This document shows positions 10,613 to 17,431 of a stretch of DNA of 29,262 bases, in pieces; positions within the stretch are counted from its first letter, which is position 1, and the number at the start of each line of letters is the position of its first letter. The translations under genes and the position numbers were made by a program. The stretch lies in assembly GCA_038231435.1 (NCBI GenBank), contig JBBRLJ010000054.1, positions 1-29,262 on the forward strand, read 5' to 3'. The notes under the pieces were generated by a model. The model had not been told where the DNA came from and made no database searches. It saw nothing but the letters and a program-made list of their open reading frames with translations. The DNA is from Planctomycetota bacterium (GTDB lineage: Bacteria; Planctomycetota; UBA11346).

Positions 10613-11635
10613 TCACGCCCGTGGCGTGACATCGACCAGGCAATCGTCCTTCCCCGTGCTGGTGAACGTCACGCGTTCACCCAGGAACAATGCGATCACC
10701 TGCGCGTTGGTGGTCGCGTGCAGGCTCGGGGCGAGCGTGCGGAAGCGTCCGCCCTTGGCTATCGCCAACGGCAGCAGCAACTGATCGGCCAGGTGTTCTC
10801 CCACCGGTGCGCTCGCGTCGAGGTAGCGCTGCGCCTCCTTGGCGGCGCGCTTCGCCACCTGCTCGGCCGAGACGCGCAGCTCACCGAAGGCGCTGATGGT
10901 CTCGGTGACGTGCTGGTAGGCCATGCTGATGGTGATGACGTTGCCCGGTCCGTCGGCGATGGCCTCGGCCTCGACGCACTCGTCGTACGACCACTTCAGC
11001 GCGTGCTTCAACGCCTCGGTCTCGCGCTCCGCGACGTGCGCGGGCAGGTTTGCGATTGTCGCCGTCGCGCGCCGCGAGATCGGCTTGCCGCGCTCGCACA
11101 GCTCCAGCGCCCAGGGCGAGACCAACGGCTGGATCTCGGCCACCAGACGGCCGCCACCCGCGGGATGGAAGCCATGACGCTCGAGCGTCAGCGCCACCGT
11201 CGCGCCGATGCGCGACAGCGTCGGCAGGAAGGAATCGCGCAGGAATTCGAACGGCGGAGCCAGGGGATTGTGCGTTCCCCCTTCCACCACCACCCGCGAC
11301 GGGGCCTTCGCCAGGAGCAGGGGCGGCAGCACGGTCTGCAGGACCAGCGACGCCGATCCCGCAGAGCCGATGGCGAAATGGTATTCGCCAGCGCACGGCT
11401 CCTGCGGGAAGAATCGCAACGCGCGACTCTGCAACTCGTCGCCTTCCAGCCGGCCATTGCAGACCCGTGCCGCGGCGCGCACCGCCGCCAGGTGCTGCTT
11501 CTGCAGCCCGGGCTTGGCGCGGCCAGCGCGGATGTTCTCGATCGTCACCGGGGTCCCGGTGATCGCTGCGAGCGCGAGCGAGGTGCGGAGGATCTGGCCG
11601 CCGCCTTCGCCCATGGTGCCGTCGATGGTGAGCAT
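10613..11635 (-). CDS. rtcA: RNA 3'-terminal phosphate cyclase
   Basis: IDGTMGEGGGQILRTSLAL, IRAGR.KPGL..QH, GSAGS..LVLQT, GGTHNP.APP, GEHLADQLLLP (adenylated His). Confidence 0.96.
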   Translation of the reverse strand: MLTIDGTMGEGGGQILRTSLALAAITGTPVTIENIRAGRAKPGLQKQHLAAVRAAARVCNGRLEGDELQSRALRFFPQEPCAGEYHFAIGSAGSASLVLQTVLPPLLLAKAPSRVVVEGGTHNPLAPPFEFLRDSFLPTLSRIGATVALTLERHGFHPAGGGRLVAEIQPLVSPWALELCERGKPISRRATATIANLPAHVAERETEALKHALKWSYDECVEAEAIADGPGNVITISMAYQHVTETISAFGELRVSAEQVAKRAAKEAQRYLDASAPVGEHLADQLLLPLAIAKGGRFRTLAPSLHATTNAQVIALFLGERVTFTSTGKDDCLVDVTPRA

Positions 11636-11643
11636 GTGGTCGG

Positions 11644-12297
11644 TCAGCCTCGCGGTGGCTCGGAGATATCATCACGAAGCACGAGCGTAGGGGTTTCGAG
11701 CCACCTTTCGACTTTCGCCAACGCCCTGGCCATGGGCACCGATCTCATGCGCGCTTTGGCCAATTCAATCTCGAGTCGCTCCACGCGACGGCTGTTTCCG
11801 CGGTGCCGATGGAAGCGGATCTGCACAGGAAGCAGATCGTCATGCCTCGAAGATTCCCTCCTCAAAGCGGCAACGATTCGAGCACCCTTCTCGACGATCT
11901 TTGGGCTATTGAGTACAGTGATGTCGAGTTCCTTGCTGGTGGCGAGTCGGCGGATCATCCCCTCCGCAATCGCCAACGCCGCCACCCGCAAATCGCCGCT
12001 CTGCTCAACCCCGCGCTCGACGCGAGGCAATATGTCGCTGAGCTCGCCCATGATCCGGCGATGGGCGCGTCGCTTGCGACGACACGGACGGCAGTGACAG
12101 ATCTCGACAGAGAGCGGGATCCGCAGCTCTTCATACCAAAAACGCTGCTCGGCGGCGGTTATCGGAAAGGAATTTCCGCATAGCGAGCAACAGTTCACCC
12201 ACGTACGCCAGTGCGTAGGTGCTGGCCGAGATCGATAGTCCAAGACCAGCAAAGTCGCATTGCACGGAATCGCTTCGGCATCTGAGTATCTGCTCAT
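11644..12297 (-). CDS. Zinc-ribbon domain protein with helical C-terminus, unknown function
   Basis: CSLCGNSFPITAAEQRFWYE...CHCRPCRRKRR matches the CxxC..F..xEQ.F.E..CxxCR zinc-ribbon pattern; GGAAGGAAG upstream of ATG 12297. Confidence 0.7.
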   Translation of the reverse strand: MSRYSDAEAIPCNATLLVLDYRSRPAPTHWRTWVNCCSLCGNSFPITAAEQRFWYEELRIPLSVEICHCRPCRRKRRAHRRIMGELSDILPRVERGVEQSGDLRVAALAIAEGMIRRLATSKELDITVLNSPKIVEKGARIVAALRRESSRHDDLLPVQIRFHRHRGNSRRVERLEIELAKARMRSVPMARALAKVERWLETPTLVLRDDISEPPRG

Positions 12298-12342
12298 GTC
12301 TTCCTTCCGATTCACGTCCGCGCTCCTCCTGCCCTTTTATCC

Positions 12343-13575
12343 TCACCCCTTCACGCACACCACCTGCTTCAGGGTGTGCACGATCTCGACCAGGTCCGCC
12401 TGGGCGGCCATCACCGCGTCGATGTCCTTGTAGGCCGCCGGCGTCTCGTCGATGACGTCGGCGTCCTTGCGGCACTCCACGCCGGCGGTGGCGGCGATGT
12501 GGTCCTCGATCGAGAACGTGCGCTTGGCGGCGCCGCGCGACATCGCGCGGCCGGCTCCGTGGCTGCAGGTCTCAAATGCATCGGCGTTTCCCTTGCCACG
12601 GACGATGAAGCTGCGCGCGCCCATCGACCCGGGGATGATGCCCAGGTCGTCCTTACCGGCGCGCACCGCGCCTTTACGCGTCAACCACACGTCCGCGCCG
12701 AAATGGTGCTCGCGGCTCACATAGTTGTGATGGCAATTCACGATCTCGATCTCGGCGGTGAACTTCGGCATCCCCGATACGTTGCGGACAGCTTCGACCA
12801 CGCGCTCCATCATCGCCTGGCGGTTCAGGCGCGCGTAAGCCTGCGCCCAGCTCACTGCCTCGATGTAGTCGGCGAAGTGCTCGGTCCCTTCGGACAGGTA
12901 GGCGAGGTCCTTGTCGGGAAGGTCGACGTGGTGCGCGCGCATGTCCTGCTTCGCCAGCTCGATGAAGAACTGGCCGAAGCGGTTGCCGACGCCGCGCGAA
13001 CCCGAGTGCAGCATGAACCACACGCGGTCCTCGGTATCCAGGCACACCTCGATGAAGTGGTTCCCGGTACCGAGGGTACCGAGGTGGTTGAGCGCGTTGC
13101 CGCGGCCAAGCTTGGGGAACTTCGCGCTGATGCGCTCGTACCCGGCCTCGAGGTGCTCCTTCCACAGGTTCTTCACGCGCACCGGCAGCTCGTGCCAGGC
13201 GCCGCGGTCGTTGGCTCCGCCGTTGTCGGTGCGGCCATGCGGCACCGCGCGCTCGATGGCATCGCGCACCGCCTTCAGCGATTCCGGCAGGTCCTTCGCG
13301 GACATGCTGGTGCGCGCCGCGCACATGCCGCAGCCGATGTCCACGCCCACCGCGGCCGGGATGATCGCGCCCACCGTCGGGATCACCGAGCCGACGGTCG
13401 CGCCGATGCCGAAGTGCACGTCGGGCATGGCCGCCACGTGATGATGCACGAACGGCATGCGCGCCACGTTCAAGAGCTGCTTGCGCGCCTCGTCCTCGAC
13501 GGGCACGCCCTTGGTCCAGGCGTAGATCGGCTTCGCATCGGGAGCCGAGATGAGATCGTAGGTCGGATGGGTCAT
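12343..13575 (-). CDS. rtcB: RtcB RNA ligase (3'-phosphate/2',3'-cyclic phosphate to 5'-OH)
   Basis: MPDVH, VGVDIGCGM, GTLGTGNHFIE, HSGSRG, HHNY, PGSMG, SHGAGR, DETPAAYKDI, VCVKG. Confidence 0.97.
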   Translation of the reverse strand: MTHPTYDLISAPDAKPIYAWTKGVPVEDEARKQLLNVARMPFVHHHVAAMPDVHFGIGATVGSVIPTVGAIIPAAVGVDIGCGMCAARTSMSAKDLPESLKAVRDAIERAVPHGRTDNGGANDRGAWHELPVRVKNLWKEHLEAGYERISAKFPKLGRGNALNHLGTLGTGNHFIEVCLDTEDRVWFMLHSGSRGVGNRFGQFFIELAKQDMRAHHVDLPDKDLAYLSEGTEHFADYIEAVSWAQAYARLNRQAMMERVVEAVRNVSGMPKFTAEIEIVNCHHNYVSREHHFGADVWLTRKGAVRAGKDDLGIIPGSMGARSFIVRGKGNADAFETCSHGAGRAMSRGAAKRTFSIEDHIAATAGVECRKDADVIDETPAAYKDIDAVMAAQADLVEIVHTLKQVVCVKG

Positions 13576-13644
13576 GGGAGCACCTGAGGGTCTAAGGGTA
13601 CAGGATACCAGGCATGGCGGATGAAGGCCAGCTTGGGAAACAGA

Positions 13645-13763
13645 GGAGCGACGAGAGTGGCGAGACGTTTTACTGAGCTATGAGCCATTTCTGACTCCCC
13701 GGGGATCGGACCCGGCCCTCCCTTTCGGGCGCTCTACCATGTAGTCTCGCCGGCATTCGCTCC
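13645..13763 (-). ncRNA. Y RNA-like element 3: tRNA mimic attached via a split D-loop
   Basis: Minus strand: GGAGCGA ATGC c GGCGAGAC TACA TGGTA GAGC g CCC-GAAA-GGG aggg CCGGG-TCCGATC-CCCGG g GAGTCA-GAAA-TGGCTC a TA GCTC AG taaaac GTCTCGCC actctcg TCGCTCC. Confidence 0.75.
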
Positions 13764-13811
13764 AAAATGAGTTTTGGCATTCGCCGGAAACGGATCGATG
13801 GACACCTCCAA

Positions 13812-13922
13812 GCCATGACGAGTGATGATGGGACGCATGCTCTACCCACTGAGCTACCGCGGATCTTGCACCGCGGACCGGATTCGAACCGGCGACCGTG
13901 TAGTCCCACCTGCATTCATGAC
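13812..13922 (-). ncRNA. yrlA: Y RNA-like element 2: YrlA-type tRNA mimic (T arm, closed acceptor stem, D arm)
   Basis: Minus strand: GTCATGA ATGC a GGTGGGAC TACAC ggtc GCCGG-TTCGAAT-CCGGT CCGCGG-tgcaagat-CCGCGG TA GCTC-AGTGGGTA-GAGC atgc GTCCCATC atcactcg TCATGGC; lies downstream of rsr. Confidence 0.85.
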
Positions 13923-13951
13923 ACGAAGAGGAGAAAGAGCGTGAGAGGAAA

Positions 13952-14032
13952 GACAGCTCCGGCGACGGCAAGGGATGGCCATGACGGGACAGTTTGGATG
14001 TAGTCGTGACCGCATCCGTCGCCGGAGATGTC
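13952..14032 (-). ncRNA. Y RNA-like element 1: minimal putative Ro-binding hairpin without tRNA domain
   Basis: CTCCGGCGACGG ATGC GGTCACGAC TACA tccaaactgtccc GTCATGGCC atcccttg CCGTCGCCGGAG; same stem-ATGC-stem-TACA scaffold as elements 2 and 3. Confidence 0.7.
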
Positions 14033-14052
14033 GAATGCTAAGATGGCATTTA

Positions 14053-15609
14053 CTAAAGAGCGATGCGATCGATCTCGCCGACCCAGTGGCCCGGACCCGA
14101 TCCACCTTCAGCGAAGGTCGCGATGGTCGAAAACACCTGGTCGCCGAAACCGCCGACGTTCAGGATGTCGGCGCGATCCGGAGCCTGGACCGTGGCGTTC
14201 GGCGCCAGGTCCACGCACACCAGCTTGGCCTGCGGGTTGCGGCGACGGAACAGCTCCCACTGGGCGAGCAGTTCCGTACCGCGACCACCCGGGCGCGCGT
14301 CGATCCAGGACTCGTTGTCCGAGACCAGAATCACTAGCACTCCCGAGGCCTTGCGGCGGTTCAACTCGGCCAGGGGCGCCGAGCAGTTGGTGCCGCCGCT
14401 CGGCAGCGCGGCCAGCGTCTGCGCGTTGGTCATCACCGAATCGCGCGGATTGAGCCGGGCTTCGACCACGTGATCCGAGAACGGCATGACCTCGGCACCG
14501 TGGTTGCGCCGCACCACCGCCGCCGCCATCAGCGCAGCGACCTGCAGACAGCTCACCGACGTGGTCGAACCGCGGCGATGGCCGGTGATCGGCGAGCGCA
14601 TCGAACCCGAGACGTCCGGGCAGACGAACACCCTACCGGCGTAGGACGGTACGTTCTCGGTCGCCGCCTCCATCGCGTCCTGCAACGCCTCGCGAACCTC
14701 GGCCGGGATGTCCGGACCGCACATGGTGAACGCCACCATGAGCTGATACGGGAACACCCGCGCCTTGGCGATGAGGTCGCGATCGCGCAGGCGCGCCGCG
14801 ATGATGCCGGCCATGCCCGGCTCATCGAACACCCCATGGCGGGCGAAGGTGTTCAGATTCATGCGCGTGGTCTGCCAGGACGCGGTGCGCGCGATGGACG
14901 TCCATGCCCGCGCTCCCAGCTCCAGGCTGGTCAGCATCTGGAACGGCACGTCCGGGATCGGCAGCGAGCGGTCGGCCTTGTAGGCCTCGAACTCGCGTAC
15001 GATCCCCGGCAGATCGCCTGCCTCGTACGGCTTGCCGATAAGCCACGCGTACAGCGCCTTGCGCGCTGGAGTCGTCGGTTTCGGGTGGATCATCTTGATC
15101 AGATCCGCCAGCGACGGGTCATTGCCCACCGAAGCGGCGAACAGCTGCTCGTCGGACAGGGACTGCATCCACGCGCGCACCAGGCGCTTCGGCGCCGACC
15201 CGAGCGACTTCCGCCCGACCACGCCCGAACGCAAGATCTGCACGAAGGTGCGCACCATCTTCGCCGAATCGCAGACCCGGGCGAAGATCTCGCCGAGCAT
15301 GCGCACGTCGCGCGCGGCGAGCACCGCGCAGAGCAGGGCTGGCATGTCCTTCATGTAACCGACATGGCGGGCATGGATCGCCACGCGCGCCACGAACTCG
15401 GTCGGCGCGACGAGCGCCAGCTCGAGCACCGTCGCCAGCTGTGCTTCGGCATCCGCATAGAAGGTGCCGTTCATGCAGCCGGTCGACGCGTACTGGGCGA
15501 GCGCATGGCGCGGGTCGAGTGCGTAGGCGCGGCCACCGGCGGCGTTGACCGTGTCGGTCTTCGGGAGCAGCGCGCCAGCCAGCGAACGGAAAAGGGAGGC
15601 ATTGGCCAT
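14053..15609 (-). CDS. rsr: Ro60 orthologue (TROVE + vWA domain RNA-binding protein)
   Basis: N.AGG.AY...P.HALAQY..TG..NGTFY, MKDMPALL, MVRTFVQILRSG..GRKSLG, RMNLNTFARHGV, vWA DVSGSM, GGTNCSAPL, SDNESW, VGGF; AGGA RBS before ATG 15609. Confidence 0.93.
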   Translation of the reverse strand: MANASLFRSLAGALLPKTDTVNAAGGRAYALDPRHALAQYASTGCMNGTFYADAEAQLATVLELALVAPTEFVARVAIHARHVGYMKDMPALLCAVLAARDVRMLGEIFARVCDSAKMVRTFVQILRSGVVGRKSLGSAPKRLVRAWMQSLSDEQLFAASVGNDPSLADLIKMIHPKPTTPARKALYAWLIGKPYEAGDLPGIVREFEAYKADRSLPIPDVPFQMLTSLELGARAWTSIARTASWQTTRMNLNTFARHGVFDEPGMAGIIAARLRDRDLIAKARVFPYQLMVAFTMCGPDIPAEVREALQDAMEAATENVPSYAGRVFVCPDVSGSMRSPITGHRRGSTTSVSCLQVAALMAAAVVRRNHGAEVMPFSDHVVEARLNPRDSVMTNAQTLAALPSGGTNCSAPLAELNRRKASGVLVILVSDNESWIDARPGGRGTELLAQWELFRRRNPQAKLVCVDLAPNATVQAPDRADILNVGGFGDQVFSTIATFAEGGSGPGHWVGEIDRIAL

Positions 15610-15645: not shown

Positions 15646-15660
15646 GCAAGCGGCGTGCCA
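15646..15660 (-). promoter_or_regulatory. Sigma54 -24/-12 promoter for the rsr-Y RNA-rtcB-rtcA operon
   Basis: Minus strand TGGCAC-GCCGC-TTGC matches consensus TGGCAC-N5-TTGC, about 36 bp upstream of the rsr ATG and next to a bEBP gene. Confidence 0.92.
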
Positions 15661-15793: not shown

Positions 15794-17431
15794 ATGTCCC
15801 ATCGCCCTCTCGTCGCCATCGGCCTGCTCGGTCCCACCCTCGACGATGGCATCGGCGCCAAGCGCTGGACCCGCTGGCGCCCGTCGGTGTCCCTGGCGCA
15901 GCAACCCGACCTGGCCATCGACCGCTTCGAACTGCTGCATCAGCGCGCGTTCGACCGGCTGGGCGAAATCATCGCCGGGGACATCCGCCAGGTGTCGCCG
16001 GACACCGTGGTCAAGCGCCACCACATCGAGTTCACCGATGCCTGGGATTTCCAGGGCGTGTACGCGGCGCTGCATGGATTCGCGCTCGGCTATCCCTTCG
16101 CTCCGGATCAGGAGGACTACCTGATCCACATTGCCACCGGCACCCACGTCGCCCAGATCTGCCTGTTCCTGCTGACCGAATCACGGCACTTGCCCGCCCG
16201 GCTGGTGCAGACTTCTCCTGGCCGCGGCGGCGACGACAAGGAATCGCGCATCGCTGGAACACACGCGATCATCGATCTCGATCTGTCGAAGTACGACAAG
16301 CTCGCCGCGCGCTTCGCCGAGGAGCGTCGCCAGGGCGTGTCGCTGCTGACCTCGGGCATCCCGACCCGCAACGCCGACTTCAGGCGCCTCATCGAGCGGG
16401 TCGAGCGGGTGGCGGCCGCGAGTACCGCGCCGATCCTGCTCACCGGCCCAACCGGCGCCGGCAAGACGCTGCTCGCGCGCCGGATCTTCGAGCTGAAGAA
16501 GGAACGCAACCAGGTGGACGGGGCCTTCGTCGAGGTCAACTGCGCAACCATCCGCGGCGATGGCGCCATGTCCGCTCTGTTCGGCCACACCAAGGGAGCG
16601 TTCACCGGAGCCGCGTCTGACCGCCAGGGCCTGCTCAAGCGCGCCGATGGCGGGCTGCTGTTCCTCGACGAGATCGGCGAACTCGGTCTCGACGAGCAGG
16701 CGATGCTGCTGCGCGCCATCGAGGAGAAGACCTTCCTGCCCGTCGGCTCGGACAAGCCGGTACTCTCGGACTTCCAGGTCATCGTCGGGACCAACCGCGA
16801 TCTCGCGGCGGCGGTGGCAGGCGGGGCGTTCCGTGACGATCTGCTCGCGCGCATCGATCTCTGGTCGTTCCGGCTGCCTTCGCTCGCCGAGCGCCGTGAG
16901 GACATCGAGCCCAACCTCGACTACGAGCTCGAACGCTTCGCGCGCGAACATGGCCGCCGCGTCTCGTTCAACGCCGAGGCGCGCGCCCGCTTCGTGGCGT
17001 TCGCAACCTCGGTGGATGCGCTGTGGAGTGGCAACTTCCGCGATCTCGCCTGCGCGGTCACCCGCATCGCCACGCTGGCACCCGGCGGGCGCATCACCGT
17101 CGACGAGGTCGAGGACGAGATCCGGCGGCTGCGCGCCCGTTGGCGGCAGCCCGTCTCGACCACTGCGGACTCGGTCGTCGAGTTCCTCGGCGCCGCCGGG
17201 GCGGCGGCGCTCGACCGCTTCGATCGCGTGCAACTGGCCGACGTCCTGGATGCATGCCGCTCGGCTCCGTCGCTGTCGGAAGCAGGACGCACGCTCTTCG
17301 CCGTGTCGCGCGCCGAAAAATCACGCGTCAACGATGCCGATCGGCTCGCCAAGTATCTCGCGCGCTTCGGCCTGTCGTGGAAGGGCCTCGTGCGCCAACG
17401 CGAAAGACGAGAGACGCCCGATACCCACTGA
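15794..17431 (+). CDS. rtcR: RtcR, sigma54-dependent activator of RNA repair (CARF-like N-domain, AAA+, HTH)
   Basis: RWRPSVSL, DAWDF..VY, IHIATGTHVAQIC, Walker A GPTGAGKT, GAFTGA, LFLDEIG, W.GNFRDL, NDADRLAKYL. Confidence 0.96.
   Translation: MSHRPLVAIGLLGPTLDDGIGAKRWTRWRPSVSLAQQPDLAIDRFELLHQRAFDRLGEIIAGDIRQVSPDTVVKRHHIEFTDAWDFQGVYAALHGFALGYPFAPDQEDYLIHIATGTHVAQICLFLLTESRHLPARLVQTSPGRGGDDKESRIAGTHAIIDLDLSKYDKLAARFAEERRQGVSLLTSGIPTRNADFRRLIERVERVAAASTAPILLTGPTGAGKTLLARRIFELKKERNQVDGAFVEVNCATIRGDGAMSALFGHTKGAFTGAASDRQGLLKRADGGLLFLDEIGELGLDEQAMLLRAIEEKTFLPVGSDKPVLSDFQVIVGTNRDLAAAVAGGAFRDDLLARIDLWSFRLPSLAERREDIEPNLDYELERFAREHGRRVSFNAEARARFVAFATSVDALWSGNFRDLACAVTRIATLAPGGRITVDEVEDEIRRLRARWRQPVSTTADSVVEFLGAAGAAALDRFDRVQLADVLDACRSAPSLSEAGRTLFAVSRAEKSRVNDADRLAKYLARFGLSWKGLVRQRERRETPDTH

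Follow-up and report, generated by a model that had tools for sequence, protein, structure and literature searches.

The locus analysed here, in which a gap of 477 nt separates rsr from rtcB on the minus strand of the window (the whole stretch of 29,262 nt), raises the question of which RNAs are encoded beside a bacterial Ro60 protein, whether they share one handle and what the third of them, a tRNA-like domain opened in its D-loop, may be.

An RtcR-type RNA-repair operon

The original prediction of an rsr-rtcB-rtcA operon under RtcR, of the type known from Salmonella, was borne out by profile matches and gene order. The features of the operon are:

15794..17431, plus strand: rtcR, sigma-54 activator with an RtcR (CARF-type) domain (NCBIfam NF038308, 784.7 bits, cut-off 650; Pfam PF06956 and PF00158)
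15646..15660, minus strand: sigma-54 -24/-12 promoter-like site, GG-N10-GC, directly before rsr (by eye)
14053..15609, minus strand: rsr, for a Ro60/TROVE protein of 518 aa when read from 15609, its likely start (Pfam vWA_Ro60, 64.1 bits)
12343..13575, minus strand: rtcB, RNA ligase (Pfam PF01139, 429 bits)
11644..12315, minus strand: ORF of 223 aa lying between rtcB and rtcA, its product probably having a zinc domain of the treble-clef type (Pfam PF13451, 31.9 bits)
10613..11635, minus strand: rtcA, RNA 3'-terminal phosphate cyclase (TIGR03399, 364.8 bits, cut-off 250)

The layout of an RtcR-regulated rsr-Y RNA-rtcBA operon is complete, with rtcR divergent from the rsr side, the sigma-54-like site, rsr, the RNAs, rtcB and rtcA. 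The site at 15660-15646 was picked by eye on what we take to be the sigma-54 consensus, and its position makes the ATG at 15609 the likely start of rsr, the ATG given by the ORF finder (15642) being upstream of the expected transcript start. Rsr matched Deinococcus radiodurans Rsr (2NVO) over residues 19-502 with an E-value of 1e-15, and its score of 69.4 bits with the NCBIfam Rsr model, far below the cut-off of 900, indicates that it belongs to a distant clade. A scan for sigma-70 promoters and terminators gave nothing above chance, with no terminator between the RNA elements, and a 97-aa ORF spanning two of these (E2 and E3, see below) had no match in Pfam.

The source genome (5.2 Mb, 88% complete) belongs to a family in which Rsr is patchy, being present in 11 of 48 genomes, many of them incomplete. 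In one genome of this family (G004, C195:19411-20262, locus L086) a frameshift or stops apparently interrupt rsr, and the DNA downstream of it yielded no handle.

Three elements with a common handle

Between rsr and rtcB we identified:

13957..14027, minus strand: E1, handle plus short pyrimidine-rich loop, a YrlB/Yrn2-like hairpin Y RNA (14027-13957, outer helix out to 14032-13952)
13812..13922, minus strand: E2, YrlA, a tRNA domain opened at its anticodon side, with T arm, loop-closed acceptor stem and D arm in that order (Rfam RF02553)
13776..13790, minus strand: lone 5' arm of a fourth handle
13645..13763, minus strand: E3, Y RNA with a tRNA domain opened in the D-loop

E1-E3 sit 26-408 nt downstream of rsr on the same strand, within the distance that defines Y RNAs (less than 4 kb from a Ro60 ortholog). 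That three elements share one handle had been predicted, and this stood for E1-E3, on the minus strand between rsr and rtcB: the 5' handle motif RATGC-N6-GACTACA occurs exactly three times in the 29-kb window, once per element, and 0 of 100 shuffles had any match, a count that expresses rarity and no independent discovery, as the motif was derived from E1-E3 themselves. Across the source genome, a looser handle pattern gave 95 matches vs 78 in the control and was uninformative. The predicted stem complementarity held for five of the six quoted pairs, which are fully complementary (two with one G-U), and failed for stem 2 of E1, where 8 of 9 positions pair, a single G-U among them, and the remaining one is a C·A mismatch. 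Folding z-scores were -5.2 for E1, -1.6 for E2 and -2.7 for E3.

MAFFT could not align the 3' handle strands of the three local elements, and the handle comparison rests on anchored parsing and on a covariance model built from E3 relatives, which, with filters off, gave 28.7 bits to the E1 handle and 46.3 bits to E2. In the part of their study relevant here, Chen et al. (PMC4201824) describe three species with two or more Y RNAs each, which have a GNCGAAN0-1G motif close to the 5' end in common; E1, E2 and E3 match 5, 4 and 5 of its six fixed letters, respectively, none of them in full, and the consensus of the class-D model, described below, matches it fully. Contigs with identical letters are present in three other runs of the same study (two X3 pieces span 13552-14082 with no difference), so that an assembly error is unlikely.

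The 15 letters of the lone arm (13790-13776) also open the intact first element of a locus of the same family (L082), and we consider the arm to be probably the remnant of a deleted element. Since relatives carry four to eight elements, this arm makes the array of the window look reduced by deletion.

E1 and E2 match known Y RNA types, and the idea of several modular RNAs is already in print, as far as the consulted part of Chen et al. (PMC4201824) goes. E1 had no match in Rfam, and its orthology with YrlB (Salmonella, M. smegmatis) or Yrn2 is putative; by BLAST, YrlB was retrieved in S. enterica only, according to the same part of that study. Short-loop elements such as E1 come first in 64 of the 123 arrays that have elements. 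E2 reached 70.1 bits (E-value 2e-14) with the Rfam YrlA model, above the gathering cut-off of 69, and has the arm order of that family, namely T arm, closed acceptor and D arm.

E3, a tRNA domain opened at the D-loop

The helices of E3, all on the minus strand, are:

13763-13757/13651-13645: handle stem 1
13751-13744/13666-13659: handle stem 2
13734-13731/13678-13675: D-stem
13729-13720: short anticodon-position hairpin
13715-13699: T arm
13698-13681: tetraloop-capped acceptor stem

From the 5' end, the handle UACA is followed by the 3' half of the D arm, the anticodon-position hairpin, the variable loop, the T arm, the tetraloop-capped acceptor stem, U8-A9, the 5' half of the D arm and the 3' strand of the handle, so that the cloverleaf is opened between tRNA positions 15 and 18. 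E3 scored 26 bits with Rfam YrlA (RF02553), through the handle only, and thus stays below the gathering score; it also departs from the YrlA layout, its D arm being split around the domain and a separate anticodon-position hairpin being present. ARAGORN called no tRNA at E3. Folded alone, the cloverleaf has -51.2 kcal/mol, 1.3 above the minimum of -52.5, and handle, D-stem and acceptor are well determined, with probabilities of ~0.45 for the T arm and 0.16 for the short anticodon-position hairpin. E3 is a divergent member of its family, with G15·G48 in place of the Levitt pair, C55 in the T-loop, an anticodon-position stem of 3 bp and a long branch. We propose that it folds into a predicted tRNA L-shape opened at the D-loop, which, as transcribed, would be neither chargeable nor able to decode.

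Covariation and tertiary core of the class-D family

The original prediction had read covariation of a conserved scaffold from the three local copies; comparative data back it far more strongly than three copies could, and the reading of three different distal domains, with a D-loop-permuted tRNA domain in E3, proved correct. The alignment of D-opened (class-D) elements had 48 rows, picked for clean parses out of 68, and from these RNAalifold, unaided, recovered the permuted cloverleaf, with changes on both sides at 25 of 30 pairs. When the structure was named, 94.5% of the cells paired and covariation was 0.616 vs 0.206 in shuffled alignments and at most 0.13 with slid partners. Five of the six helices covary; the D-stem, whose 5' strand belonged to the search pattern, is nearly invariant in these rows. 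Its covariation is seen only through five class-II variants (L011:4819-4968, L052:4832-4973, L112 near 1121, L228 and L229), in which both strands of pair 12-23, separated by roughly 70-110 nt, have changed to turn U-A into G-C, and which carry a long variable arm like that of Leu and Ser tRNAs.

The Levitt pair was followed in 52 representatives of less than 85% identity, position 15 lying near the 3' end of the domain and pairing with 48: G:C was observed in 40, A:U in 4, U:A in 1 and other, non-complementary combinations in 7 (the parse of L100 was shortened, so that it entered this count as G:U, its true pair being A:U). On a tree of all 83 cores, A:U at 15:48 needs at least four separate origins (starred branches), on few columns and with many open forks. 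T54 and C56 are invariant in 48 of 48 rows chosen without a T-loop filter. The family thus has the four cloverleaf helices, U8/A14, Levitt 15:48, G18/G19, T54, C56 and A58 by which a tRNA fold is recognised, and at family level a tRNA three-dimensional fold is predicted. According to the part of the sources consulted, covariation of the Levitt pair is the evidence that Chen et al. (PMC4201824) used for YrlA, for which a crystal structure later confirmed it (10.1101/312249).

The anticodon-position loop has 3-6 nt in 49 of 49 elements (a 7-nt loop in none), and a 4-nt loop closes the acceptor in 40 of 48, the acceptor stem being mostly of 4-6 bp (7 bp in 3 of 49) and devoid of CCA. With such a loop and a closed acceptor, class-D RNAs can neither decode nor be charged as transcribed.

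Distribution of class-D elements

Of 135 Rsr relatives in GTDB, the best 80 were fetched with their loci, and the D-opened type was present in 19 of these 80, nearly always just downstream of rsr. Seventeen of the 19 scored 70.9-119.5 bits with model R1, YrlA-type elements reaching at most 62.6; the R1 score of E3 itself is circular, as E3 was part of the training, and five members held out of it gave 70.9-93.5 bits vs the same maximum for the YrlA type. The other two are class-II variants, with about 60 bits. The hosts are labelled as members of four phyla (Planctomycetota, Pseudomonadota, Acidobacteriota and Bacillota), and cultured bearers include Massilia horti, Andreprevotia lacus, Undibacterium seohonense and Roseateles.

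A metagenome scan with a pattern of the 5' half only, blind to rsr, retrieved at least 120 stretches; among the matches listed, 70 had the full 3' structure, 47 lacked it and 3 were truncated. Where at least 900 nt were available upstream, again among the matches listed, a same-strand rsr was present upstream of 37 of 40 complete matches vs 1 of 26 incomplete ones, the latter (L121) being a parser miss; the Fisher values obtained for this association, and for the 15:48 pair, ignore relatedness. Three complete matches had no rsr match in the DNA fetched (L112, L116 and L142). At L112:660-1600, a contig of 2.5 kb, an array of YrlA and class D, some handles having an altered 5' motif, comes right after a sigma-54-like site opposite rtcR; at L116:1200-2360, a contig of 2.4 kb, a short-loop and a class-D element lie within a cluster of tRNA-like genes.

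In the family of the window, class D lies within ~2 kb of rsr in 8 of 11 rsr-bearing genomes and is found in none of 37 genomes without an rsr match, and all 8 genomes with a strong match carry it beside rsr. Among 150 of 2435 candidates scored with R1 in the source genome there was no second strong locus, the next match inspected being an ordinary tRNA, and R1 gave three matches in 121 genomes of another family, with 29 candidates per genome scored, each match lying between rsr and rtcB. In viral contigs, the class-I pattern had two matches, both without the 3' structure, and the class-II pattern none; blastn of E3 against GenBank phages gave no match. The class-II pattern had one match in 172 genomes, an already known member. 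Rfam called 7 YrlA and 0 class-D elements in 18 loci, and ARAGORN none of the class-D elements of 21 related loci.

Arrays and handles across the Rsr clade

Multi-RNA arrays are the norm in the Rsr clade of the window and are larger than those in the papers cited here. The parsers were imperfect, the first having missed E1 and the second having mislabelled several class-D elements; with a conservative one, at least one handle was found downstream of rsr in 76 of 80 loci and at least three in 50 of 80, the 80 loci having 241 sense elements vs 6 antisense calls. By the parser, related arrays have up to eight handle-bearing RNAs, and their inserts comprise short loops, T-arm-only domains, YrlA, the D-opened type and others. 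The longest array seen, in Andreprevotia lacus (L044:4778-6924), has at least 10 handle matches over 2 kb, and an ARAGORN tRNA-Arg call overlaps one of these.

The original prediction regarded the three RNAs as interchangeable adaptors, which the handles do not support, each insert type keeping its own: across nine loci from the window's own family, handles of class D show 72% identity from one genome to the next vs 50% to the handles beside them in their own genome (a difference reached by 0 of 5000 permutations of the labels). The elements appear from these comparisons to be stable, long-lived paralogous genes, which may still compete for one Rsr site.

Further insert types were noticed on the same handle. 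In T-arm-only inserts (e.g., L029:4681, L035:4688 and L040:4697) a GG occurs at most 4 nt after UACA in 63 of 88 distinct cases; the figures are 5 of 70 for short-loop and 51 of 154 for YrlA inserts. It may be that T-arm-only elements are relatives of class D that, in minimal form, mimic only the elbow, through a D-loop GG and the T arm. The inserts at L010:2787-2901 and L016:1836-1971 have a D arm, an anticodon-position arm and a T arm, being opened at the acceptor like Deinococcus Yrn1, and constitute a further permutation. Many YrlA inserts (e.g., L062:4771 and L067:4712) open with what seem to be the anticodon loop and the 3' strand of the anticodon stem, retained ahead of the T arm. The first or third element at L001, L002, L006, L082, L215 and L217 has a family-specific insert of two or three hairpins, not obviously tRNA-like, which is kept in relatives of the window and absent from the window itself.

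Proposed function and alternative explanations

We hypothesize, with a probability of about 0.7, that E1-E3 are three Rsr-bound Y RNAs and that E3 is a folded, D-opened tRNA mimic; that E3 has a partner of its own is a tentative addition. By analogy with Salmonella, damaged tRNAs would activate RtcR and thereby switch on the sigma-54 promoter. E1-E3 would be freed from the operon transcript at pyrimidine-rich spacers and stabilised by Rsr, which likely binds them through the common handle. E1 could be a plain gate on the Rsr ring, and E2 and E3 could act as nuclease-resistant, tRNA-shaped tethers, guiding Rsr to ribosomal sites or proteins by which the core and elbow of a tRNA are recognised; the available part of Chen et al. 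(PMC4201824) indicates that YrlA and YrlB bind Rsr and PNPase. YrlA would hang from Rsr by its anticodon end, exposing elbow and acceptor side, and E3 by D-loop positions 16-17, which would leave acceptor end and anticodon arm both free and turn a different face toward tRNA-binding partners.

It is conceivable, though we rather doubt it, that all three RNAs are bound by Rsr and the tRNA fold serves stability alone, E3 being a redundant gate captured from a tandem tRNA pair. Nuclease protection is one of the options named in the consulted part of Chen et al. (PMC4201824), and a dimeric-tRNA origin for YrlA is cited in that of Wang et al. (10.1101/312249), an opening in the D-loop being equally easy; class-D arm lengths, moreover, vary freely, and class D is absent from 61 of 80 arrays. 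Stability alone is harder to reconcile with the position of class D next to YrlA in 11 of the 13 loci where the parser called it, with a class-D handle kept across genomes and with a D-arm sequence that is near-fixed while the other stems covary.

Another explanation, which we regard as unlikely, is that E3 is a decoy or competitive inhibitor of the tRNA-cutting nucleases that trigger the operon, Rsr being its carrier only. A decoy was considered by Hughes et al. (PMC7790460) for YrlA, which the nuclease left uncut, and E3 has the anticodon-position arm that YrlA lacks; this arm, however, has a 7-nt loop or an anticodon in none of 49 elements, which leaves nothing for anticodon nucleases that read sequence.

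We give very little credit to the idea that E3 is a permuted tRNA gene of the kind found in some algae and archaea, cleaved and then joined by RtcB to yield a functional tRNA: all four arms are there, an RNA ligase gene is next to them and processing was raised for YrlA in the available part of Wang et al. (10.1101/312249), but an anticodon loop is found in none of 49 elements, the tetraloop-closed acceptor is mostly of 4-6 bp without CCA, and ARAGORN was negative at E3 and at the class-D elements of the related loci. Equally improbable is that the handles, although inside a presumed polycistron, are no RNA genes but merely decayed repeats or stems at which the operon mRNA is processed, given that E2 reaches the Rfam YrlA cut-off, that calls in the 80 loci are overwhelmingly sense (241 vs 6) and that the distal domains covary, tertiary pair included.

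Significance and comparison with known Y RNAs

Retaining three Rsr-bound Y RNAs with a D-opened E3 as the preferred reading, class D is apparently an undescribed, widespread family, likely attached to Ro60 at a point unlike that of any published Y RNA, as judged from its arm order. No description of a D-loop-opened Y RNA was found in the literature searched, and key reviews may mention one. A bolder, speculative proposal is that bacterial Ro60 loci provide a set of tRNA mimics, joined to one Rsr handle through differing cloverleaf positions, with a D-opened class having its own partner. If this were so, class D (class I and class II) would be a whole, uncleavable tRNA with both ends free, its partner could be, for instance, a ribosomal tRNA site or a tRNA-damaging enzyme, and its comparison with YrlA would locate the surface that a Y RNA effector recognises, the same tRNA core with another Ro60 attachment point being a natural control. 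Candidates for this surface would be the features conserved and exposed in both (D-arm sequence, core triples and elbow), and not the varying acceptor and anticodon arms or most T-stem pairs. Current annotation covers only part of such loci, as the Rfam counts given above illustrate.

Permuted tRNA genes of algae and archaea can have D-loop breakpoints. As cited in the consulted part of Wang et al. (10.1101/312249), these genes, like class D, place the 3' part of the tRNA before the 5' part and have a looped acceptor; they mature to decoding tRNAs, whereas class D lacks an anticodon loop and has a handle of the Ro60 type. The passages available from PMC12135203 report phage Y-like RNAs without a tRNA-like domain, by the terms used there.

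Features common to E3 and YrlA (RF02553), as described in the available parts of PMC4201824 and 10.1101/312249, are the handle, an acceptor stem that is closed, a D arm of fixed sequence, the T-loop and covariation of the Levitt pair. YrlA runs from the T arm through the acceptor to a whole D arm, with the handle in place of the anticodon arm, whereas in E3 the D arm is split, an anticodon-position hairpin is present and the handle leaves from the D-loop. The description of Deinococcus radiodurans Yrn1 in the same part of Chen et al. (PMC4201824) is also of a tRNA-like domain whose order differs from that of YrlA and which has an anticodon-position arm, as E3 does. In Yrn1 the D, anticodon and T parts follow one another, the Ro60 helix takes the place of the acceptor and the D arm is not complete; E3 differs from it in that its acceptor is closed as a hairpin and its D-loop is split. 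That part of the study had already reported a tRNA-like RNA together with a hairpin RNA and suggested that they broaden the range of Ro60 complexes.

The closest counterpart of the whole operon is rsr-yrlBA-rtcBA of Salmonella Typhimurium, with divergent rtcR (PMC7790460; PMC10159003), which has the same gene order and sigma-54-like promoter as the window and, likewise, a hairpin-type RNA first, YrlA second and rtcB and rtcA after them. The window differs by its distant Rsr, by the 223-aa zinc-domain ORF between rtcB and rtcA, and by an extra third RNA, opened at the D-loop, with the remnant of a fourth handle.
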